Of a stretch of DNA of 56,296 nucleotides, positions 10,677 to 51,769 are shown one piece after another. Source of the DNA: an uncultured Gammaproteobacteria bacterium (GTDB lineage: Bacteria > Patescibacteriota > Microgenomatia > PFEM01 > CAZTHI01); NCBI GenBank assembly GCA_964613135.1, contig CAZTHI010000001.1:14029-70324 (forward strand), written 5' to 3'. Numbering within the stretch: position 1 is the stretch's first letter; each line of letters opens with the position of its first letter. The position numbers and the translations under genes are program-made. The notes under the pieces were generated by a model that worked only from the letters and a program-made list of their open reading frames with translations, was not told the origin of the DNA and did not search any database.

Positions 10677-11540
10677 TCAAAAAGGCGAAAGCGCGGTATA
10701 TTCGTCATTAATTTGAGAATAGGGAAGCAATCCGTCGGTGATTGATTTGGGGAAGGATTTTTCGCTTAACAACTTCATCGGGGTATGGCCATTGCCAATG
10801 GTATTGGTCAGGTCGGGGTAATAGATCGTGACTTGTCCGTTTACCGCTTGACCATCAGGCAGGTAAAGTTTTATTTGATCGGGCACGTCGCGGTATATTT
10901 CTGATTGCACTAATTCAGGAGGCGTCGAGCCGACCAGATCTCGGCTTCTGTTAATGATCTCTTGCGCGTGATTTAAATACCGACCGGTTTGTCCTGAGCC
11001 CATGAAATCGCCGATAAAAGGAGATTGGTAGGAACAATGACAAATGTCTGTTTCTTGAGCTGACCAAAGGTCATCGTAATGAAGACTGAACCCCAACAAG
11101 TGGCCCAATTCGTGGAAAAGGACAAAATAGGGAAAATCCGGATTGGAATAGTTTCCCACTTCCACATTTCTGCCAAAATGACCGCCACCCGGGAAATTAT
11201 GAAAAATGGCAATCGCCATCTCAGTACCCTCCGGAAGATTACAGAATTCGTCCGGAGCATAAAAATCCGGTGGATATCTTAAGCAAGTGGTCGCGGCTGC
11301 TTGGTCGAATACCACGACTTCTCCCTGAAAGGACTTGTTGATCCCATTTTGGGCCAATTTCGTGTTAATTTTGGAAAGAATATTGTCCGGCGTGGCAAAA
11401 TTGGAGTCAACTTGGTTGGCAATAAAAATTTTTACCGAAAATACCCGCGGGAAGGGAGGGTTGATGGCACTGGCCAGCCGGGGGAAAAATAAAACGGCGA
11501 CCAACAAGCCAATAAAGATTGTTATTTTTTTAAGCGACAT
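10677..11540 (-). CDS. secreted zinc metalloprotease (HExxH)
   Basis: Signal peptide MSLKKITIFIGLLVAVLFFPRLASA and 'FHELGHLLGF'. The ATG at 11540 is preferred over the track's TTG at 11549. Confidence 0.6.
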   Translation of the reverse strand: MSLKKITIFIGLLVAVLFFPRLASAINPPFPRVFSVKIFIANQVDSNFATPDNILSKINTKLAQNGINKSFQGEVVVFDQAAATTCLRYPPDFYAPDEFCNLPEGTEMAIAIFHNFPGGGHFGRNVEVGNYSNPDFPYFVLFHELGHLLGFSLHYDDLWSAQETDICHCSYQSPFIGDFMGSGQTGRYLNHAQEIINRSRDLVGSTPPELVQSEIYRDVPDQIKLYLPDGQAVNGQVTIYYPDLTNTIGNGHTPMKLLSEKSFPKSITDGLLPYSQINDEYTALSPF

Positions 11541-12318
11541 TATGATCAATGGGTAATTTTAGTTTCGGGTAGCCTTCGCAAAACTGCTTGAAGCTGACGG
11601 GTTTTTTGCCCTCCAACTGGACTTGATCGATAACGAGAGACGTGAGATGTGAGATGTGAGACGGTTTTTTCTCAAGATGAGCCCTTAAGATTTTCAATCT
11701 GCGTCTCTCGTATCCCGTATCACGTTTTACCCTTATTGGGGTCCACGCTCCCGGCCAGGGGGACATGGCGCGGATAAAACGCTCCAAATACTCGGGTGGT
11801 TTTTGCCAGTCAATTTGGCCGTCTTCACGAGTCAACCTTTTGGTAAAAGTGGCCCACCAGTGTTCTTGGGGCCGTAGTTCAATTTTTCCCGCCAGATAAG
11901 CGGGGAGGATTTTGAGTAATACGACAGCGCCGGCGGTAAAAGCTTTGCTTAAAAGCGTTTGGCTGGTGTCGTCGGGCGCGATGGGTAGTTTAATTTGCGC
12001 CACGATTGGCCCGTGATCGACTTTTTCGTCCAATTTAATAATGGTCACGCCGGTTTCGGTTTCCCCGGCCAGAATGGCACTGGGTACCGGGGTGGCGCCA
12101 CGGTATTTGGGTAGTAATGAAGGATGGATATTCAAAATGCCCTTACGGGGAGCGGCGACTGCCTCAGCCGACAAAATTTTGCCGTAAGAAGCCAAAACGC
12201 CCACCTCGGCTTTGGCCGGGTTGGTGACCAGATCAAAGCGGCCGTCTTTTTTGAGGGCGGCCAGAACTATTTCCGAACGGCTATCTGAACCGAAAAAAAC
12301 GATTTTTGGTTTTATCAT
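11530..12318 (-). CDS. fmt: methionyl-tRNA formyltransferase
   Basis: 'KIVFFGS...ILNIHPSLLPKYRGATP'. Start at MIKPKI. Confidence 0.85.
   Translation of the reverse strand: MIKPKIVFFGSDSRSEIVLAALKKDGRFDLVTNPAKAEVGVLASYGKILSAEAVAAPRKGILNIHPSLLPKYRGATPVPSAILAGETETGVTIIKLDEKVDHGPIVAQIKLPIAPDDTSQTLLSKAFTAGAVVLLKILPAYLAGKIELRPQEHWWATFTKRLTREDGQIDWQKPPEYLERFIRAMSPWPGAWTPIRVKRDTGYERRRLKILRAHLEKKPSHISHLTSLVIDQVQLEGKKPVSFKQFCEGYPKLKLPIDHNVA
11564..11611. repeat. 48-bp fmt 3' end (direct repeat, right copy)
   Basis: Pairs with 9839-9886. Confidence 0.8.
11635..11662. repeat. heptamer array GTGAGAT x4
   Basis: The array gagagacgtgagatgtgagatgtgagac encodes PSHISHLTS in fmt. Confidence 0.85.
11702..11729. 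repeat. heptamer array CGTNTNN x4
   Basis: The array cgtctctcgtatcccgtatcacgtttta encodes KRDTGYERR in fmt. Confidence 0.75.
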
Positions 12319-12823
12319 ACTGGTAAAGCGATCCTTTTTGCGCCAAAACCCGGTCGGTGAACAGTATGCCGTCCAGATGATCGGTTTCGTGCTGAACGAC
12401 CACACCGGTAAAGCCTTTGAACTTACGAATGACGGTTTGGCCGGTCGGCGTTTGGTAGCGGACTTTAACCACCGAAAAACGCCTGACCTTGCCCCATATT
12501 TTCGGTACTGATAAACAGCCTTCGAAGGGATTTTTACGACCGGCCACCCCGAGATGGGTGCGTTTGGAAGTCCAGATAATTTCCGGATTAATCATGGTCA
12601 GAAACTTGCCCGACCCGGCGGACCAGACGAGGATAAGGCGCACCAACTGGCCGATTTGGGGAGCGGATAAACCAACGCCGACGCGCCCGCCGCCTTCGCC
12701 TTTTTTGATAAACTCCAGCATCTGATTTGCTAGTTGACTAACCGAGCCATTGATTTTGGCCACCGGCCACGATTTTTGCCGCAGCAGGGGATGGGGGACG
12801 GTTAAGATTTTTAGTTTTGCCAT
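12281..12823 (-). CDS. def: peptide deformylase
   Basis: GVGLSAPQIG, EGCLSVP and HETDHLDG motifs. I chose the second ATG because it lies 6 nt after the -10. Confidence 0.85.
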   Translation of the reverse strand: MAKLKILTVPHPLLRQKSWPVAKINGSVSQLANQMLEFIKKGEGGGRVGVGLSAPQIGQLVRLILVWSAGSGKFLTMINPEIIWTSKRTHLGVAGRKNPFEGCLSVPKIWGKVRRFSVVKVRYQTPTGQTVIRKFKGFTGVVVQHETDHLDGILFTDRVLAQKGSLYQYDKTKNRFFRFR

Positions 12824-28183: not shown

Positions 28184-28747
28184 ATGATACTCTCGGACAA
28201 AGATATTCTTAAAAGGATTAAAAAAGGAGAAATTAAAATTCAACCTTTGGATAAAAACTGCGTCCAACCATCAACAATAGATCTTTATTTATCTGATCAA
28301 GTGAGGATTTTTGACAACTGGCAGATCGGAGTCGTTGATGTTAAAGAAAAATCGGAAACCTCCCGCCTGGTTAAGCTTGAAAAAGAAGGTTTTATTATTC
28401 ACTCCGGCGAGTTTTTACTTGGGGCAACGGTCGAAAAAATTAGCCTGCCCGATGATGTGGCTGCCAAGCTAGAGGGCCGAAGTTCTTTGGGGCGGTGGGG
28501 ATTGATCATTCATGCGACGGCCGGTTATGTGGATCCCGGTTTTTCTGGCTGGTTGACTTTTGAACTTTCTAATTTATCACGCTTGCCGATTAGAATTTAT
28601 CCGGGAATGAAAATCGCCCAGATTTGTTTTTTCCAAATGTCAAGCAAGGTTTTGCATCCCTACGGCTCCAAAAAATTAGGGAGTAAATACCAGGGTCAAA
28701 AAGGCCCAACTGCCTCCCGAGCCTGGATGGATTTTAAGAAGAATTAG
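28184..28747 (+). CDS. dcd: dCTP deaminase
   Basis: 'MILSDKDIL...VQPSTIDLYL...GRSSLGRWGL..HATAGYVDPGF'. Confidence 0.85.
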   Translation: MILSDKDILKRIKKGEIKIQPLDKNCVQPSTIDLYLSDQVRIFDNWQIGVVDVKEKSETSRLVKLEKEGFIIHSGEFLLGATVEKISLPDDVAAKLEGRSSLGRWGLIIHATAGYVDPGFSGWLTFELSNLSRLPIRIYPGMKIAQICFFQMSSKVLHPYGSKKLGSKYQGQKGPTASRAWMDFKKN

Positions 28748-30393
28748 ATTAATCTTGAAGGGTATTCCTCGGTTTTTTTATCCCATAAAGGCTGGCCGCA
28801 GTATTTTTCGCCTTCGGGACAAAAAGGCGTGTTGTGAGCTGACCAGCGGATGCCGCAGGGAGCCAATAACCAACGGCTAATTTGCGGATGGACTTGGCTT
28901 ATCTGTTGGGTTTCTTGAACCGAGGCCTGCCAAATTTCTTCCTGGGCGTTAAAACAAAGCCGCATCCGGTATTTATGATGAAGGTTTAAAAGATCACTGG
29001 ATTCGGTAAAACGAATCGGAAAGGCATTAGGCAGTCGGTATAAAGCAAATTCAGCCGGGACCCCGAGTTCTAAAAGACGATTAATAGTGGCAAAAGTTTT
29101 TTCCATAATTTCTTGGTATAAGGCAAGAGCTTTTGGGTTTTGACTGATTAAAGTAGGGACGATATAGTCCGGTTCTCCCGAATAATGAGTGCTTAGAATC
29201 GGCCGAGCGGCAGGGGTCATCCGGTGGCGTTGGTCTTGGGAATCAGCCGTATGGCTGATTTTTTTCTCAAAAGTATAAGAAATAGCATGAAGCGCTTGGC
29301 TTAACTTATGAAGCGTCGTTAGATTTAAAACATCGCCTAAAACTTTATTTTTGGCCGGGTTCAAAACCAGCTCAATCGCCTCGGCGTCTGGCAATCGGCC
29401 GGAATCCATTCCCAAAACATTTCTGACCGCGCTCGCTAAGGTTTGCGGGGCATTGACCGGCCAGTCAACTAATTTGGAATTAATGCCTCCTAATTTATGA
29501 TCGAATTCCTGATTAAAGGCTTTAGCCGCTCGGTAATCGATTGGTTGTCTTAATGAAGCCAATGCTTGGAATTCTGGGGTTTGGTTTAGCGGATAAGGAT
29601 CTTCCAGTTCATTGAAAAAATGAGGATCAAGTTTGGCGACTTGGTTAACCATCTCGTAAACGACTAATTTTGCCTCGAGCGGGACATCAGCCATGGAACA
29701 AGTCCGAAAGTAACGCATGAGAGTTAAGGCGCTAACAGTATGATAAAGATAAGAAAAAGTATCAACACCTAGAACATAGCGGGCGACCTCCTGGGCTTTT
29801 TTCTCAACTACGCCAGCATTGGCCTTTTGCCATTTTTCTCCTTTCCTTGCCGGAAAAATGCTTAAATATTCTTCTGCTACCGCCGGCTCGAGAGTTTCTT
29901 TTAACTGTTGGTAGGCGGCCATTTGTTCTTGGGCGTTTCGCAAATAAAGTTCTAAGGCTTGGCCTTCTAAAGGAGGAATAAAAAAATTGCCTTCTTTAAC
30001 GGCGACGTATCTTTGACTGACCTGTTCGGAGTTATAAAACGGATGAGCATGGAAAAAAGCCCAAAGCAGTTGGCGAGAAACATTGGCCAGGCCAAAGACG
30101 ATTTCAAAATGTTGGCGGGGGGTGAGATGACCGGCTTTTCTGGTTGATTCAATAACCTGGTCGGTAATCGGCCGATGCTTGGGATTAAGATAATCTGCCG
30201 GGCGGTAGATTTCTTTACCGGAATAGCAAGTTCTGGCGGACTCACCGGCAAAAACCGTTGGTGATGAAGCGATGCCGGCGTTTCCGGTACTTTCGGGAAC
30301 GGTGGTAATGCCTAAAATTTCGACTTGAGGCAAGGGAGAGAGGGGCAGTTTTTCAATCCCGTGATTTTTTAGCTCAGATTCCGGCCTGCCCAT
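28744..30393 (-). CDS. thyX: long ThyX-like FAD-dependent thymidylate synthase (pseudo-dimer)
   Basis: The second half carries 'DQRHRMTP'. The first half carries a degenerate 'SEQVSQRYV' (ThyX RHR..S..RY motif). Confidence 0.55.
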   Translation of the reverse strand: MGRPESELKNHGIEKLPLSPLPQVEILGITTVPESTGNAGIASSPTVFAGESARTCYSGKEIYRPADYLNPKHRPITDQVIESTRKAGHLTPRQHFEIVFGLANVSRQLLWAFFHAHPFYNSEQVSQRYVAVKEGNFFIPPLEGQALELYLRNAQEQMAAYQQLKETLEPAVAEEYLSIFPARKGEKWQKANAGVVEKKAQEVARYVLGVDTFSYLYHTVSALTLMRYFRTCSMADVPLEAKLVVYEMVNQVAKLDPHFFNELEDPYPLNQTPEFQALASLRQPIDYRAAKAFNQEFDHKLGGINSKLVDWPVNAPQTLASAVRNVLGMDSGRLPDAEAIELVLNPAKNKVLGDVLNLTTLHKLSQALHAISYTFEKKISHTADSQDQRHRMTPAARPILSTHYSGEPDYIVPTLISQNPKALALYQEIMEKTFATINRLLELGVPAEFALYRLPNAFPIRFTESSDLLNLHHKYRMRLCFNAQEEIWQASVQETQQISQVHPQISRWLLAPCGIRWSAHNTPFCPEGEKYCGQPLWDKKTEEYPSRLI

Positions 30394-37892: not shown

Positions 37893-37921
37893 TTGACAAA
37901 TTTTCCTCTTGGTGTTAACAT
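37893..37921 (+). promoter_or_regulatory. promoter TTGACA-17-TAACAT (TGt extension)
   Basis: The ATG at 37932 is 10 nt after the -10. Confidence 0.6.
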
Positions 37922-37931
37922 GTGTATACAT

Positions 37932-38186
37932 ATGTTGAATAAGCGCACTCAGATTTTATTTGATAATGATTTTTGGAGCGAGCTTTTGGTTTTGGCTAAA
38001 GCCAGGCAAATGTCCGTGGGGGAATTGGTGAGAAATGCTTTAAGAGAAACCTATTTTGCTGGTAATGACAAACAGAAAATGGCTAAAGAAAGAGCTTTTG
38101 AAAATATTTTAAACTTGAAAAAAACAATTAAGCCCATTAGCATTGAAAAGATCGGGCAGCTTATTAATTATGGCCGGAAGTATTAA
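37932..38186 (+). CDS. ribbon-helix-helix antitoxin (VapB-like)
   Basis: 'KRTQILFDNDFWSELLVLAKARQMSVGELVRNAL'. Confidence 0.6.
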   Translation: MLNKRTQILFDNDFWSELLVLAKARQMSVGELVRNALRETYFAGNDKQKMAKERAFENILNLKKTIKPISIEKIGQLINYGRKY

Positions 38187-38559
38187 AAAATGTTTTGTGG
38201 TGGAGGCCTCTTTTGTTTTGAGTTTTCTTCTAAGAGAAGAAGAGGCTCTCGCAGAGATTTTTAAAGATTATGTTAACGGCAGAGTAGAATTTGTCACCAG
38301 CGACCTCTTAAAATACGAGGTCGGCAATGGTTTAAGATCGGCCGTTCTAAAAAAAAGGATAAGCTCCAAGACCGCCAGGGCTATTTACCAAGAATTTTTG
38401 GTCCTGGGAATCAGTGAGGAAGTGCCCGGCCCGCTACAGACCCTAAAAATTGCCCTTTTACGAAAGATCAGTTTTTATGATGCTTCGTATTTAGCCTTAA
38501 GCCGGCAAAAAGGCTGGCCTCTTTTAACTAGAGACAAGGCACTAGAGTTATTAAAATAA
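38170..38559 (+). CDS. PIN-domain toxin (VapC-like)
   Basis: 'FYDASYLALS', 'LLTRDKAL'. The first acidic residue is E ('VVEASF'). Overlaps the antitoxin by 17 nt. Confidence 0.6.
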   Translation: MAGSIKKCFVVEASFVLSFLLREEEALAEIFKDYVNGRVEFVTSDLLKYEVGNGLRSAVLKKRISSKTARAIYQEFLVLGISEEVPGPLQTLKIALLRKISFYDASYLALSRQKGWPLLTRDKALELLK

Positions 38560-38860: not shown

Positions 38861-40297
38861 ATGAACAGCGCGAATTTTCAGAAAAAAGAAATCCAGAAAA
38901 AGTCCCAAGACATTGCCGCTTGGTACACTGATGTTATTTTAAAATCGGAGTTGGCGGATTACGCGCCCGTTAAGGGCGGCATGGTCATCCGGCCTTATGG
39001 TTATGCCCTCTGGGAGAAAATCCAAGAATATCTGGGCGGACTGATTAAAAAGCGCGGGGTCAAAAACGCCTATTTCCCGCTTTTTATTCCCGAAAGCTAT
39101 TTACAAAAAGAAAAAGAGCACGTGGCCGGCTTTTCGCCGCAAATGGCGGTGGTTACTTTTGCCGGCGGCGAGGAATTAAAAGAAAAGCTGGTCGTCCGGC
39201 CCACCTCGGAAACAATTATGTATGAGATGTATAAAAAGTGGACCCAGAGCTGGCGGGACTTGCCGATTCTGATTAATCAATGGAATAATGTCGTCCGCTG
39301 GGAAAAACGAACCTATCTGTTTTTGCGCACCTCCGAATTTTTATGGCAGGAAGGCCACTGCGCCCATGCCACTCATGAAGAATCAAAGGCCACCGTTTCG
39401 TGGGCCTTGAAGTCTTATGTTGATACTTATCAGAACTTATTGGCCGTTTATGGCATTTCGGGAGCCAAAAGCGAGGCGGAGAAATTTGCCGGCGCCGACA
39501 AGACTTATACCTACGAAATTTTGATGCCCGACGGCAAGGCGCTCCAGGGCTGTACTTCCCATGATTTGGGCCAAAAATTTGCCAAGGCTTTTGCTTGGAC
39601 GGTACCCGATCAGGCCGGTAAGCCGCTTTATCCTTGGCAAAACAGCTGGGGTTTTTCCACCCGGAGCATTGGCGCCTTAATCGCGGTTCATGGCGACGAC
39701 AATGGGCTGATTTTGCCGCCTCAAGTTGCCCCCATCCAAATTATTATTGTTCCCATTCCCGGTTCAACCAAGGCGGCGGAATATGCCAAAATTGTCCAGG
39801 GTAATCTTGAAAAAGACTATCGTTGCGAGACTGACAACGAAGAGGGCAAAACCGCCGGCTACAAGTTTAATAAATGGGAATTAAGGGGCGTGCCGTTGCG
39901 AATCGAAGTGGGCGAGCGGGAAGCCAATAATCAAAAAGTGACTTTGGTGAGGCGAGATAAAGGCGAAAAGGCGACTGTTTCTCTGGAAGCGCTAACGGGC
40001 GAGGTGGGTAATTTATTAACCGAGATTCAAGATAATCTTTTGGGTCGCCACCAAAAATTTACCCAAGAAAATACCCATGAAGTGAATGCTTATGAGGCCT
40101 TTAAGCAGATTATGGCCGCCGGCCGGGGATTTATCGCCGCTTTTTGGTGCGAGAATCCCGCTTGCGAGGCGAAAATTAAAGAGGAAACCAAGGCCTCGGT
40201 CCGCTGTTTGCCTCTAGATGCCAAGAAGGCGAATGGTAAATGCATTTATTGCGGCAAGGAAGCCTTTCATCGCTGGCTTTTTGCCCAGTCTTATTAG
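38861..40297 (+). CDS. proS: prolyl-tRNA synthetase (archaeal/eukaryote-like type)
   Basis: 478 aa, class II motifs, C-terminal 'CIYCGKEA' zinc motif. Confidence 0.9.
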
Positions 40298-40301
40298 TTT
40301 T

Positions 40302-40310
40302 TGTTAGAAT
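40302..40310 (+). promoter_or_regulatory. extended -10 (TGTTAGAAT), 7 nt before the ATG at 40318
   Basis: TGTTAGAAT-accctca-ATG. Confidence 0.6.
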
Positions 40311-40317
40311 ACCCTCA

Positions 40318-41332
40318 ATGAAAAAACGGCCGAAGATTGTGGTGCTGGGTGGGGGAACGGGAACGTACGTGGTACTTTCCGGTTTGCGGGATTTTCTGGT
40401 TGACTTAACGGCGATTGTTTCCATAGCAGTTTAGCAAACTGATATATCGAACTCCGTTCGCTATGGCCGATTCGGGCGGTTCTTCCGGTCGGCTGCGGGA
40501 TGAGTTTGGGATTTTGCCGCCGGGTAATGTCCGGCAGGCGCTATTGGCGCTTTCGGCCCTACCTCTGGAAAAAACCAAACTCCGCCAGCTTTTTGATTAC
40601 CGGTTTAGCAATGGCAACGGTCTGGCCGGTCATTCTTTCGGCAATCTTTTTTTAACCGCCCTGACTCATATCACCGGCCGGGAAGATTTGGCGATTAGGG
40701 AGGCGGCCAAAATTTTGGATGTCCAAGGCCAGGTTTTGCCGGTGACCATGGATCACTCTCATCTAGGGGCTAGGCTGGAGGACGGTACGATTATTAAAGG
40801 GGAAACCAATATTGACATCCGCCGCGTGCGACCTGATTTAAAAATTTTGGATGTTTTTCTGGATCCGCCGGCCAAAGTTTACCCTGAGGCGCGCAGGGCC
40901 ATTTTGGCGGCCGACTTGATCGTTTTGGCGCCGGGCGATCTTTATACCTCGCTGGTGCCTAACCTTTTGGTCGAGGGTGTTAATCAGGCGATCGTCAAAT
41001 CAACAGGGAAGCTGGTTTACGTTTGTAATTTAATGACCAAGCATGGGGAAACCGACGGCTTTGCCGTTTCCGATTATGTTGCGGAGGTAAAACGGTATTT
41101 GGGCAAGGCCGCTAAAAAGCTAACCCATGTTTTGGTCAATAACCAAACCGGCAAAATTCCCGCTACGCTTTTGCGCCGCTACCGGCAAGAAAGATCATTT
41201 CCGGTGAAAATTGATGAAGACAAATGCCAAAAATTGGAAGTAGAGCTGGTGGTTAAGCCCTTGGCCGCCGTCGGCCAATTGCTGCGCCACGATCCGGCCA
41301 AATTGGCGCGGGAAATTTCAAGACTCCTGTAA
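40318..41332 (+). pseudogene. YvcK/CofD-like (UPF0052) gene split by a 40-nt insert
   Basis: '[24 protein letters not shown]' ends at a TAG at 40432. 'MADSGGSSGRLRDEFGILPPGNVRQAL' resumes at 40463 in the +1 frame. Joined, they give the contiguous family motif IVSMADSGGS. Confidence 0.65.
40423..40462 (+). other. 40-nt structured insert inside yvcK
   Basis: atagcagtttagcaaactgatatatcgaactccgttcgct contains two hairpins (cagttt/aaactg and cgaac/gttcg), closed by ccatag/ctatgg. Confidence 0.7.
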
Positions 41333-41382: not shown

Positions 41383-41655
41383 ATGAATTATTTGGTTTCC
41401 ATCACCTCGCAGGGTCAAATCAGCATTCCGGCGCCGATCAGACGGGAATTGGGGTTATTGGTTAAAAGAAAAGCTCTGGTAACGACTGATGGTCAAAGGG
41501 TTCTGGTTGAACCGGTGGAAGACCTTTTTTCTTTAGCCGGTGCTTTTAAGCATAAGGCAATGAGGGGTAAAACCATGCAGGAGATTATCGAAATTGAAGA
41601 ACAAGCGTGGGAAAAGGAAGCCGTAAAGCGCTATCTTAAAACTCTTAAGCAATGA
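41383..41655 (+). CDS. AbrB/SpoVT-family antitoxin
   Basis: 'SITSQGQISIPAPIRRELGL'. Confidence 0.65.
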   Translation: MNYLVSITSQGQISIPAPIRRELGLLVKRKALVTTDGQRVLVEPVEDLFSLAGAFKHKAMRGKTMQEIIEIEEQAWEKEAVKRYLKTLKQ

Positions 41656-42047
41656 AAACGCTGATTGCTGACACCAATTTTTATTTAAGATTTATTCTTC
41701 AGGATAATCCAAAACAATTTAAGATTGTCAACGAATTTCTGCGAAAAGCCCAGCAAAGAAAAATAAAAATCGTTTTTTTAAGTGAAGTTATTTTAGAAAT
41801 GGAGTTTGTTTTGCGAAGCGTTTATTTGTTCTCTCGGCCTGAACTGACCAAGGCTTTGGCCGGTTTGTTAAAGGTGGATTATCTGGCGATTGAAGAAAGA
41901 GATCTCTGGCTGGAGACTTTTGAAATTTTTTCCAAAAGTTCTCTTTCGCTTTTTGACATCTTTTTGTTTTTTAAGGCCAAAAGCCGAAAAGCTGAAGTTT
42001 TGACTTTTGATAAGGATTTTCGCAAGCTAGCCAAAATTTTGCCGTGA
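41652..42047 (+). CDS. PIN-domain toxin (VapC-like)
   Basis: 'LIADTNFYLRF', 'VLTFDKDF'. Confidence 0.65.
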   Translation: MKTLIADTNFYLRFILQDNPKQFKIVNEFLRKAQQRKIKIVFLSEVILEMEFVLRSVYLFSRPELTKALAGLLKVDYLAIEERDLWLETFEIFSKSSLSLFDIFLFFKAKSRKAEVLTFDKDFRKLAKILP

Positions 42048-51198: not shown

Positions 51199-51212
51199 AC
51201 AAAGTATATAAT
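51185..51212 (+). promoter_or_regulatory. promoter TTGACA-16-TATAAT
   Basis: The third ATG (51220) lies 7 nt after the -10. Confidence 0.65.
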
Positions 51213-51219
51213 GATGAAT

Positions 51220-51516
51220 ATGGATACCGCCGTCATTAATATCAAAATTGATTCTCGGACTAAACTTCAGGCTCAGCGAGTGGCTGCCGGCTTGGGTTTT
51301 AGTTTAAGCGCGCTGATTAATGGTTATTTAAGGCAATTAATCAGAGTAAAGGCGATTAATTTCAATTTAACCAGCGAAGAGCCGAGCGAATATCTGATTC
51401 AAGCTCTGAAAGAATCGGAGGCCAATCGCAAGGCCGGCCGCTTTACTTCTTTCCGGTCCGCTGACGAAGCCTTGGGATTTTTGGACAAGATCATTGATGA
51501 AAACAAAAAGAATTGA
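51220..51516 (+). CDS. RelB/DinJ-family antitoxin
   Basis: 'INIKIDSRTKLQAQRVAAGLGFSLSALINGYL'. Confidence 0.65.
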   Translation: MDTAVINIKIDSRTKLQAQRVAAGLGFSLSALINGYLRQLIRVKAINFNLTSEEPSEYLIQALKESEANRKAGRFTSFRSADEALGFLDKIIDENKKN

Positions 51517-51769
51517 TTATTCTAAAAGATTTATCAAAGACTTCCGCAAGGCCCCTCAGAAAGTTAAAATTGCTTTTCGCCACCGGTTGGAAATTTTTTT
51601 GAGCGACCAACATCACCCGATTTTAAATAATCATGCCTTGGCCGGCCAATACCAAGGCTACCGTAGTCTTAATATTACCGGGGACTGGCGGGCAATTTTC
51701 CGGGAATTGGAAGACGGGAAGGTTTTTTATTTTGATTTGATCGGCACTCACAGCCAGTTGTATCGCTAG
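51494..51769 (+). CDS. RelE/YafQ-family toxin
   Basis: 'DYSKRFIKDFRK...LAGQYQGYRSLNITGDWRAIF'. Confidence 0.7.
   Translation: MMKTKRIDYSKRFIKDFRKAPQKVKIAFRHRLEIFLSDQHHPILNNHALAGQYQGYRSLNITGDWRAIFRELEDGKVFYFDLIGTHSQLYR

Follow-up and report, generated by a model that had tools for sequence, protein, structure and literature searches.

A recent orphan insertion of 40 bp has most probably made a young pseudogene of yvcK (glmR), a cell-wall-metabolism gene of the CofD superfamily, in an uncultured Microgenomates (CPR) bacterium, and does not represent a new mode of gene reading. The insert really exists, and it is fixed in the population as sampled, restricted to that lineage and single-copy wherever it was searched for. 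We propose that a 40-bp piece of DNA entered a CCATGG site at codons 35/36 of the gene in a recent ancestor of one population, after which ribosomes would yield only a 38-residue N-terminal stub and, at best, also a separate 289-residue C-terminal piece from the ATG at 40463. From the sequence data, we infer that the function of the gene is lost or largely lost; it would now be drifting as a young pseudogene, the event being too recent for its ORFs to have broken up, and the hairpins would simply have come with the inserted DNA and would not serve to remove it. The features of the locus are collected in Table 1, with positions referring to the whole stretch of DNA analysed (56,296 nt, hereafter the window).

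Table 1. Features of the interrupted yvcK locus
Feature	Position	Strand	Basis
Promoter-like site of yvcK, TTGCCC-18-TAGAAT, TG before the -10	40281..40310	+	consensus match only
yvcK/glmR 5′ segment, codons 1-35, including the GGGTGT loop	40318..40422	+	ORF, Pfam/TIGR match, alignment
SNP C/T, T16M in the GGGTGT motif; T in L003, L006, L007, L010 and L018	40364	+	contig comparison
SNP T (window, Leu27) / C (L014, Pro27)	40397	+	contig comparison
5′ arm CCATAG of the closing inverted repeat, partner CTATGG at 40461-40466	40421..40426	+	predicted fold
40-bp orphan insertion (40424-40463 or 40425-40464 equally good placements)	40423..40462	+	sequence, empty-site comparison
Hairpin 1, CAGTTT-AGC-AAACTG	40427..40441	+	predicted RNA/DNA fold
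TAG stop in the 5′ frame; N-terminal fragment ends ...TAIVSIAV	40432..40434	+	sequence, ORF
Hairpin 2, CGAAC-TCC-GTTCG	40448..40460	+	predicted RNA/DNA fold
3′ arm CTATGG of the closing inverted repeat; holds ATG 40463 of the 289-aa ORF	40461..40466	+	ORF, predicted fold
yvcK/glmR 3′ segment, codons 36-324 and stop, 289-aa ORF intact	40463..41332	+	ORF, Pfam match
SNP A (window, Asn57) / G (L014, L015, L018, Asp57)	40526	+	contig comparison
SNP A/G, M131V in L018; also removes the second CCATGG site of the gene	40748	+	contig comparison

The insert and the gene it interrupts

A first-pass annotation, made from the DNA alone, had described a palindromic element interrupting a yvcK/cofD-like gene, with removal of 40423-40462 restoring the contiguous family motif. 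When these bases are deleted in silico, the resulting 324-aa protein covers Pfam CofD from one end to the other (1-289/290, one unbroken stretch, E 2e-91), scores 311 bits against TIGR01826 (YvcK; cut-off 196), and matches PDB 2HZB and 2O2Z with E 2e-72. The same product is obtained if 40424-40463 or 40425-40464 is deleted instead, because AT is repeated at both junctions, as had been recognized. As it stands, the 5′ frame (ORF 40240..40434) closes at the TAG, and since 40 bases equal 13 codons plus one (3n+1), the downstream frame is shifted by +1; both the stop and the shift had been ascribed to the insert and both are confirmed. The 3′ ORF begins with MADSGGSSGRL and is intact over its 289 aa, and, the insert aside, the two ORF pieces contain zero extra stops or frameshifts across 975 nt. 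In an alignment to PDB 2HZB, the insert site follows strand beta-2 and precedes the conserved (A/F)DSGGSSGRLR loop. The promoter-like site ends 8 nt 5′ of the yvcK ATG, implying that the leader is very short or absent.

The empty site is seen in the closest intact relative (L013), which reads ...GGTTTCCATGGCGGAT... at this position and carries TTTCCATGGCG; the interruption at a CCATGG palindrome is thereby established. The next relatives (P0002 and P0003, with 87 and 88% amino acid identity, respectively) show the empty site TCC-ATG-GC; they are contiguous across the insert site, like all others, and none of 109 homologues has a residue inserted between positions 35 and 36. Two 288-aa homologues (P0036 and P0041) that start at the same Met were considered as carriers of an insert at the same site; no insert is present in their contigs (L011 and L012), and the two are, judging from these contigs, only start-codon miscalls.

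Positions 40421-40466 read CCATAGCAGTTTAGCAAACTGATATATCGAACTCCGTTCGCTATGG, and the G+C content of the insert is 40%, as opposed to 51.6% for the gene. The RNA fold predicted for this segment (hairpins at 40427-40441 and 40448-40460, with a closing stem of 40421-26/40461-66) is identical to the two hairpins and ccatag/ctatgg stem that had been claimed. The 46-mer alone folds better than shuffled sequences, both as RNA (z = -2.35, 5 of 200 shuffles as good) and as DNA (z = -3.6, 0 of 200), while the significance is lost once 10-nt flanks are added (z = -0.66). The old target CCATGG is present as CC and ATGG at the outer ends of the closing repeat. Alternatively, the same sequence can be read as a 40-nt block that is bounded by 4-bp terminal inverted repeats (TAGC...GCTA) and lies at the dyad center CCA^TGG with no target duplication; the junctions fit a 2-bp AT target duplication and a blunt insertion at the palindrome center equally well. 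CCATGG occurs 7 times in the window compared to 13.2 ± 3.3 expected, and a restriction-related origin through avoidance of this site was set aside, as the deficit is mild and non-significant.

Pfam scanning of ~60 of the 70 window ORFs of at least 70 aa revealed no second yvcK copy. In Bacillus subtilis, YvcK/GlmR is essential only conditionally, on gluconeogenic carbon sources (PMC6171935, PMC7525490), and its loss is therefore plausible. The ybeY and alkD-like genes of the window also look truncated, so that gene decay appears not to be unusual in this genome.

Occurrence and polymorphism in the population

Thirteen further contigs, from JGI, ENA (MEGAHIT and SPAdes) and Logan assemblies, carry the identical 40-mer at this site; they represent at least three assembly pipelines and several samples. 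All 14 assembled sequences of this population thus bear the insert, which is restricted to this one population (at least 99.4% identity), and no 324-aa match with at least 90% identity, as expected of an intact allele, was returned from a protein set of 5.8 billion clusters. Four haplotypes bear the insert and all four gametes are seen for sites 40364 and 40526, indicating recombination; the insert is therefore older than the present diversity.

The four SNPs in yvcK among the insert-bearing contigs (T16M, P27L, D57N and M131V) are all nonsynonymous, with no synonymous change. Position 16 is Thr in 96 of the 109 homologues and Met in none, Pro27 is the ancestral state (81/109), and D57, in the PPGDVR motif, is Asp in 109/109. 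Based on site counts, four nonsynonymous changes out of four would have a chance of ~0.001 at the historical dN/dS of yvcK (0.075, relative to L013) and ~0.32 under neutrality. No SNP is found in the 3 kb downstream of yvcK, and in the ProRS gene upstream most SNPs are synonymous (all 8 of those in L001-L005 and most of the L014 tract). Constraint on yvcK thus looks relaxed, though in a small sample of four SNPs.

A relative-rate count of unique amino acid changes gave 15 for the window lineage, 17 for P0002 and 15 for P0003, i.e. no long-term acceleration of YvcK in the window lineage. This is compatible with a recent event, and neither supports nor refutes a recent pseudogene. As the ORF pieces are intact and there is no excess of amino acid change, a young pseudogene and a still-expressed gene are not separable on these grounds.

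The locus resembles ordinary insertion pseudogenes of reduced or uncultured genomes, where a conserved gene has received a short insertion with a stop and frameshift while close relatives keep intact orthologues, and likewise shows protein-changing polymorphisms at conserved residues and other truncated genes nearby. A disrupted ORF whose family match is restored by deletion, the lack of an intact allele among 14 sequences, and relaxed constraint, in a small sample, are the features of such a pseudogene found here. It differs in the nature of the insert, which is a structured orphan 40-mer at a CCATGG palindrome and not a duplication, a homopolymer slip or a recognizable IS.

Origin of the inserted DNA

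The insert may have arisen through a single capture of filler DNA when the palindrome was broken, or it may be a rare mini-element. It has more structure than shuffled sequences do, which is unexpected for random filler. It is rather unlikely that the insert belongs to an active, MITE- or PATE-like type of miniature mobile element, with yvcK as one of several insertion sites and other copies lying in the rest of the genome. Short terminal inverted repeats (TAGC...GCTA, or CCATAG/CTATGG if the target is included), a possible 2-bp AT duplication, and the internal hairpins with their DNA fold score would be in keeping with such an element, and the search for copies within this genome covered 56 kb only. 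The 4-bp repeats and the possible duplication are too short to be separated from chance. Hairpins 1 and 2, on the other hand, are dissimilar, unlike the ends of IS200/IS605 elements. An element of this kind concerns the origin of the insert only, and is compatible with the pseudogene verdict.

Searches for other copies of the 40-mer, as called for in the first-pass annotation, returned none, neither in the window nor in the collections covered. Neither the whole insert nor either hairpin recurs in the 56 kb, from exact matches up to 3 mismatches, and word-7 blastn within the window also found no other copy. The two-hairpin pattern has no match in 185,579 GTDB species genomes, JGI metagenome contigs or IMG/VR; the pattern itself works, and the metagenome contig collection missed the known locus itself and is thus evidently without samples of this organism. 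No copy of the left half was found in the GTDB species genomes or of the right half in the metagenome contigs, and blastn of the insert against phages and plasmids gave none. The two halves matched only two homologous phage contigs in the viral collection, through a common 18-mer; these have no second hairpin and no matching flanks, and the match was judged to be due to chance. There is no transposase or other mobile-element gene among the Pfam-scanned window ORFs and no endonuclease gene near the insert. Of the suggested MITE-like insertion giving a pseudogene, the pseudogene half stands, with a disrupted ORF, no intact allele on record and only nonsynonymous SNPs, while the MITE half finds no support in a second copy or a transposase.

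Bacterial MITEs, REP/REPIN sequences and Rickettsia palindromic elements are likewise small palindromic DNAs able to enter genes, and short terminal inverted repeats and a possible 2-bp target duplication are seen in the insert too. These families are, however, many-copy, whereas the 40-mer is single-copy wherever searched; the Rickettsia elements lie in frame and lack stops, whereas the 40-mer is 3n+1 long with an in-frame TAG; and REPs are extragenic, whereas the 40-mer lies inside a gene. Inspection by eye for a tRNA fragment, a hammerhead core (CUGAUGA...GAAA), an integron attC site or a dif/lox-like site revealed nothing that fits, nor does a terminator or promoter inside the insert (by eye and promoter scan).

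Can the gene still be read?

A split but functional gene of two cistrons, in which the 38-aa peptide with the GGGTGT loop and the 289-aa protein pair non-covalently, or the large piece works alone, is unlikely. The 289-aa piece would be re-initiated at ATG 40463, 28 nt past the TAG. In keeping with this, both pieces are intact ORFs, the ATG lies at the conserved Met36 directly 3′ of the insert, the break falls between secondary-structure elements and the protein has not changed faster in the long term. Only 7 of 34 starts in this genome are preceded by a Shine-Dalgarno sequence, and yvcK itself seems nearly leaderless; the missing Shine-Dalgarno sequence before 40463 is therefore no obstacle, and independent translation of the 289-aa piece is conceivable. 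On the other hand, SNPs alter conserved residues of the stub (T16M and P27L) as well as of the large piece (D57N), synonymous SNPs are lacking, pairing within the 6-bp closing stem of the predicted fold hides the ATG, and no such split is seen in any of thousands of relatives.

Translational recoding that keeps yvcK whole is very unlikely, although three routes are conceivable. (a) Peptidyl-tRNA-Ile could hop from AUA (40423-25) to AUG (40463-65), giving ...TAIVS-I-ADSGG; (b) a shorter hop over hairpin 1 could start at AUA 40423 and land on AUA 40442, for a gain of 7 residues; (c) the frame could be shifted by +1 at GUU-UAG-C (40429-35), for a gain of 13 residues. The predicted junction-spanning peptide is TAIVSMADSGGSSGR for excision or an exact hop and TAIVSIADSGGSSGR for the AUA-to-AUG hop, while the frameshift would give LIYR and TPFAMADSGGSSGR. 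A nascent-peptide signal would have to lie in the upstream peptide, which is the ordinary YvcK N-terminus and is also found in relatives without the insert.

Several features of the insert invite such a reading. The bypass blocks (byps) of mitochondria span 27-55 nt, and the 40 nt of the insert lie within this range. They also lie within the range of the gene 60 clades, where bypass blocks of 20-50 nt have been described (Manning and Atkins preprint 10.1101/2022.08.31.505936). The duplicated AT makes the take-off and landing codons alike at two of three positions, and mitochondrial byps are reported to have imperfect codon matches of this sort (PMC5009743). Six of the 109 homologues have Ile at position 36. 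AUA and the next codon, GCA, are both rare (5.6 and 4.7 per 1000), resembling a ‘hungry’ A-site, and the take-off codon is followed by a hairpin with UAG in its loop and then directly by a matched AUA. In the predicted fold this hairpin begins 2 nt after the first AUA, which itself lies within the closing stem, and use of the AUA/AUA pair is what would add the 7 residues of route (b).

The signals needed for recoding are nevertheless poorly represented. Exact restoration requires the codon pair UCC/GCU, which is unmatched, and AUA and AUG are read by different tRNAs. [quoted passage not shown] The insert contains no GAG, GGG, GGA or AGG, and hence no mini-Shine-Dalgarno sequence 5-7 nt before the landing site. 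Route (c) has no upstream Shine-Dalgarno sequence and poor re-pairing of GUU to UUU, and routes (b) and (c) add residues where 0 of 109 homologues tolerate any. Finally, there is one instance only, with no conservation beyond the one population, and the polymorphisms point to relaxed selection.

Comparison with known systems leads to the same view. The insert is like the T4 gene 60 block in being a short non-coding block in a conserved gene, with a UAG, a stem-loop near its 5′ end and a change of frame, but it is without the mini-Shine-Dalgarno sequence of that cassette, its AU-rich tract followed by a correctly spaced landing codon, and the associated MobA homing-endonuclease element. It is, moreover, not conserved across lineages and its host gene is under relaxed selection. 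The byps of Magnusiomyces capitatus (PMC5009743) are likewise short inverted-repeat blocks in protein genes, sometimes flanked by codons matched at only two of three positions, as AUA/AUG are here; they are, however, present at 81 positions in one mitochondrial genome, compared to one copy in the 56 kb and the collections, and need an unused A-site codon and relaxed mitochondrial decoding, whereas the code here is standard with no unassigned codon. The order of a sense codon, a stop and then C (GUU UAG C) recalls the CUU UGA C of prfB, and a +1 shift at it would join the two frames, but the upstream Shine-Dalgarno stimulator of prfB is lacking, re-pairing of tRNA-Val on UUU is poor, and 13 foreign residues would end up in a conserved loop of the protein, an arrangement seen in no relative. 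It is highly doubtful that the 40-mer does in a bacterium what byps do in mitochondria, with an AUA-to-AUG hop over 40 nt yielding YvcK with Ile36. The candidate bypass element proposed in the first-pass annotation is very unlikely to hold, as its testable defining signals are missing and the insert is confined to one near-clonal population; that annotation had named a single copy with no structural conservation as grounds against the exciting readings, and on these grounds they fail.

It is extremely improbable that the 40 nt are removed at the RNA level as a miniature intron, whether a host endonuclease and ligase acted at the foot of the closing stem, as for archaeal bulge-helix-bulge introns, or the RNA cleaved itself. 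Precise excision would restore the gene, and the predicted stem brings both splice points together. Yet the local 301 nt give no Rfam match at the gathering score or at E up to 10, and the insert, as had been pointed out, is far smaller than group I or II introns. Both junctions fall within a 6-bp helix that is perfect in the predicted fold and has neither a bulge-helix-bulge motif nor 3-nt bulges, and bulge-helix-bulge splicing of mRNAs is not known in bacteria. Here too there is a single instance, in a gene under relaxed selection.

There is next to no chance that the insert is an assembly or sequencing artefact, as had also been suggested: chimeric reads can give palindromic inserts, and three contigs end 25-34 nt 5′ of it (L008 and L009 at 40389 and L015 at 40398), but the same insert is present in the 13 other contigs on four SNP backgrounds, and the breaks lie at or between SNPs 40364 and 40397, where strain bubbles account for them.

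Implications

Only junction-spanning peptides or spliced transcripts would lend the insert importance, as the first non-phage bacterial bypass element or mini-intron. The byps-like reading, if true, would make it the first bypass element on a bacterial chromosome, phages aside, and would suggest that the small CPR ribosome tolerates hopping. As it stands, the young pseudogene that we favor matters little beyond documenting that one Microgenomates population has recently lost yvcK/glmR. A structured insert of 40 bp can mimic a recoding signal, which calls for caution in scans that flag ‘interrupted but otherwise perfect’ genes, and population SNPs from independent assemblies can tell a young pseudogene from programmed recoding without the need for expression data.

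Results

The insert interrupts an otherwise complete yvcK gene

The sequence at 40408-40434 reads ACG GCG ATT GTT TCC ATA GCA GTT TAG, ending the 5' ORF of yvcK in ...TAIVSIAV*, and continues from ~40460 as GCT ATG GCC GAT TCG GGC GGT, where a 289-aa ORF opens with MADSGGSSGRL. The insert contributes the TAG and, because 40 nt equal 13 codons plus one base, a +1 frame shift. With 40423-40462 deleted, the 5' and 3' pieces become one 324-aa protein, and deletion of 40424-40463 or 40425-40464 gives the identical product, since AT is repeated at both junctions. The repaired protein covers positions 1-289 of the 290-position Pfam CofD profile in one unbroken stretch (E 2e-91), scores 311 bits with the YvcK model TIGR01826 (cut-off 196) and aligns over its full length with the YvcK structures 2HZB and 2O2Z (E 2e-72); the insert therefore breaks a gene that is otherwise complete. 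The predicted RNA fold has two hairpins and a CCAUAG/CUAUGG closing stem. The 46-mer alone is more stable than shuffled sequences (RNA z = -2.35, DNA z = -3.6), an excess that is gone once ten flanking bases per side are added (z = -0.66). The first-pass annotation, which had reported the interruption, the family motif restored by removal of 40 nt, the TAG with its +1 shift, the duplicated AT and the closed pair of hairpins, is confirmed: the feature is real and was accurately described.

Coordinates of the features discussed (window positions unless stated otherwise)
Feature	Position	Strand	Remark
fmt ORF	11530-12405	-	125-nt overlap with def
ThyX ORF	28744-30393	-	549 aa
Toxin-antitoxin pair 1	37893-38559		unknown protein + PIN
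ProRS 5' end, variable tract	38911-39127		L014 2950-3300
yvcK promoter-like site	40281-40310		TTGCCC-18-TAGAAT with TG
SNP	40364		T16M, GGGTGT loop
SNP	40397		P27L
CCATGG site 1	40421-40426		40-bp insertion at dyad centre
Insert	40423-40462		
Hairpin 1	40427-40441		
Hairpin 2	40448-40460		
3' ORF of yvcK	40463-41332		289 aa
SNP	40526		D57N, PPGDVR motif
CCATGG site 2	40746-40751		A>G SNP at 40748 in L018
SNP	40748		M131V
Toxin-antitoxin pair 2	41383-42047		MazE-like protein + PIN, directly downstream of yvcK
ybeY	43582-43875	+	overlaps dnaX start at 43820; apparent 3' truncation
23S-rRNA-intervening-sequence-family protein	46322-46687		
Fic/DOC protein	47441-48169		
AlkD-like DNA_alkylation gene	50688-51198	+	profile 84-213 of 213 matched
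40-aa ORF	50688-50810		other frame, just upstream of the AlkD-like match
Toxin-antitoxin pair 3	51211-51769		RelB/YafQ
18-mer of hairpin 1	L016 7062-7079; L017 9334-9351		phage contigs

The insert is shared by all fetched contigs of one recombining population

Fifteen public contigs encode exactly this 289-aa product; ten of them were fetched, and two sister proteins from its 90% cluster led to three more. In all 13, drawn from JGI, ENA MEGAHIT, ENA SPAdes and Logan assemblies, the 40-mer is identical in sequence and position; some were probably re-assembled from shared raw data, yet the set spans several samples and three or more pipelines. This recurrence, across four haplotypes, excludes the assembly artefact that had been among the original candidates. 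At 99.4-100% identity to the window, the contigs form one population. Their yvcK haplotypes are T16/P27/D57/M131 (L014), T16/L27/N57/M131 (the window), M16/L27/N57/M131 (L003, L006, L007 and L010) and M16/L27/D57/V131 (L018). All four combinations of sites 40364 and 40526 are present, and the population is therefore recombining, with an insert that predates its present diversity. Three independent contigs begin 25-34 nt upstream of the insert, L008 and L009 at window position 40389 and L015 at 40398; these breaks fall at or between SNPs 40364 and 40397 and are probably due to strain bubbles, the assembly graph being heterogeneous there. The 5' end of ProRS shows dense differences between haplotypes (7 in L001-L005, 34 in L014), mostly synonymous and spaced in multiples of 3, as might be seen after recombinational import of a diverged allele. 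In L014, this tract includes TGG>TAG at codon 21 and a compensating indel pair, and ProRS is called 40 aa shorter.

A search of the repaired protein against about 5.8 billion protein clusters found no intact allele above 90% identity. Its closest relatives, P0002 (87%, 324 aa) and P0003 (88%), and all others (<=75%) are contiguous across the insert site, which on the contig of P0002 is empty and reads GGTTTCCATGGCGGAT; P0008 (73%) carries the name 'Microgenomates group bacterium'. None of 110 aligned family members has an extra residue between positions 35 and 36. Taken together, these observations make the insert specific to one near-clonal lineage. Two 288-aa homologues starting at the same Met were rejected as further cases, their contigs being free of the insert and their starts being start-codon artefacts.

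The 40-mer is an orphan in the collections searched

No second copy was found in the 56-kb window (up to 3 mismatches, each hairpin alone, or word-7 blastn). A pattern of hairpin 1 plus the hairpin-2 stem had no match in 185,579 GTDB species genomes, JGI metagenome contigs or IMG/VR; the same pattern recovers all fetched insert copies, so the scan works and the metagenome collection is without these samples. Each half of the insert alone was likewise unmatched in genomes and metagenomes, as was the insert in phage collections, plasmid collections and Rfam. In viral contigs the halves gave a single match, the hairpin-1 18-mer GCAGTTTAGCAAACTGAT, which lies inside a conserved stretch of two related IMG/VR phage contigs, where the second hairpin, matching flanks and the remainder of the element are absent; chance alone would be expected to give about three hits of this kind, and we regard these as chance. 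Pfam searches of about 60 of the 70 window ORFs of at least 70 aa revealed no transposase, integrase, homing endonuclease or second CofD-family protein. As far as is searchable, the 40-mer is an orphan.

Selection on yvcK appears to have relaxed recently

Compared with the nearest intact relative, yvcK has a dN/dS of 0.075 (dS about 1.06) and, by this measure, is a gene strongly constrained through most of its history. Private amino-acid changes number 15 in the window lineage against 17 and 15 in two intact relatives, and the lack of an excess speaks against long decay and for a recent lesion. Within the insert-bearing population, all four SNPs in yvcK are protein-changing. Of 109 homologues, all have Asp at position 57, 96 have Thr and none Met at position 16, and 81 have Pro and one has Leu at position 27. 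With the site counts of the dN/dS comparison, the probability of four nonsynonymous changes out of four is about 0.001 if the historical constraint still held and about 0.32 under neutrality. The same contigs have zero SNPs in the 3 kb downstream, and the upstream ProRS SNPs are mostly synonymous (8/8 in L001-L005, the majority in the L014 tract). Although the numbers are small, this is the pattern that a gene freed from constraint after the insertion would show. The first-pass proposal of a MITE-like insertion creating a pseudogene is supported in its second half, by the disrupted ORF, the lack of an intact allele on record and the four SNPs, and unsupported in its first, no second copy having been found in the window or the collections scanned.

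Discussion

A split yet functional yvcK, re-initiating at ATG 40463, is conceivable, given that few starts in this genome have an SD (7/34 in a crude count of SD-like tetramers up to 20 nt upstream of the assumed starts of long ORFs) and that the yvcK promoter-like site terminates 8 nt 5' of the gene's own ATG, a spacing that points to an mRNA with little or no leader. However, both pieces are losing conserved residues, and ATG 40463 lies inside the closing stem. Of the recoding routes, a +1 shift at GUU-UAG-C would add thirteen residues; a hop from AUA 40423 to the matched AUA at 40442, directly after hairpin 1 and in frame with the 3' ORF, would add seven. Both additions fall where no family member carries extra residues.

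Translational bypass like that of T4 gene 60 or the yeast mitochondrial byps was another first-pass candidate; a bacterial byp-like element, in which the ribosome would hop the insert, is very improbable. Bypass of the gene-60 type features a single tRNA reading the take-off and landing codons, a stop or hungry codon immediately 3' of take-off, a take-off stem-loop, a mini-SD (GAG/GGG/GGA/AGG) 5-7 nt 5' of landing, and constraint across diverged hosts (Manning and Atkins, preprint 10.1101/2022.08.31.505936). Exact restoration would require a hop from UCC to GCU, which are unmatched. The duplicated AT supplies AUA (40423) and AUG (40463), equal at two of three positions, and a hop between them yields Ile36, natural in 6/109 relatives, but the two codons are decoded by different tRNAs. 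AUA and the following GCA are both rare (5.6 and 4.7 per 1000), as would equally be expected of non-coding filler. In contrast to the gene-60 type, the 40-mer holds none of the four mini-SD triplets, and it is confined to one near-clonal lineage. Mitochondrial byps tolerate two-of-three codon matches, occupy 81 sites per genome and employ an unused codon (PMC5009743); neither of the latter is true of the 40-mer. An intron removed from the RNA lacks positive support: the size is at odds with known classes, Rfam gives no match, and the junctions lie within a perfect helix without bulges. The recoding and splicing readings are each without positive support and conflict with the signal of relaxed selection.

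Both CCATGG sites of the ancestral yvcK are altered, and the window holds 7 such sites against 13.2 +/- 3.3 expected; the two alterations may be a coincidence or a hint of targeting (restriction/modification).

Elsewhere in the window, the 97-aa ybeY ORF covers just 30-83 of the 129 positions in the Pfam YbeY profile and runs from ...ELIIHG directly into the dnaX start (TTCATGGCT); none of the three frames holds the remainder of its HGxLHLxGYDH zinc motif. The AlkD-like gene also appears truncated or frameshifted, the second such case, and the 40-aa ORF may be a remnant of its N-terminus. Met30 (MIKPKIVFFGSD...) is the probable true start of fmt. The formyltransferase domain at the N-terminus of Fmt, matched from profile position 74 onward, falls ~40 residues short of the Pfam profile, which probably reflects a naturally compact protein rather than a lesion. 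The ThyX ORF, which matches the Thy1 profile in two stretches and has about twice the usual length, may encode a tandem-fused ThyX. Three toxin-antitoxin pairs sit amid the housekeeping genes, and proteins of the 23S-rRNA-intervening-sequence and Fic/DOC families are also encoded.

For yvcK, we envisage one insertion event in which 40 bp of DNA, either foreign or filler, separated codons 35 and 36 at the CCATGG palindrome. Its junctions are compatible with a 2-bp staggered cut (AT duplicated) and equally with blunt cleavage at the dyad centre and 4-bp inverted termini TAGC/GCTA; the source may have been a rare mini-transposon or a short fragment captured in break repair. The consequence would be a truncated product and lost YvcK/GlmR function, after which the allele would have spread through the population and neutral changes would now be accumulating. 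YvcK/GlmR is essential only conditionally in Bacillus subtilis (PMC6171935, PMC7525490). We consider it likely that yvcK is an ordinary young pseudogene produced by an orphan 40-bp insertion; with ybeY and the AlkD-like gene also apparently truncated, gene loss would not be exceptional in this genome.
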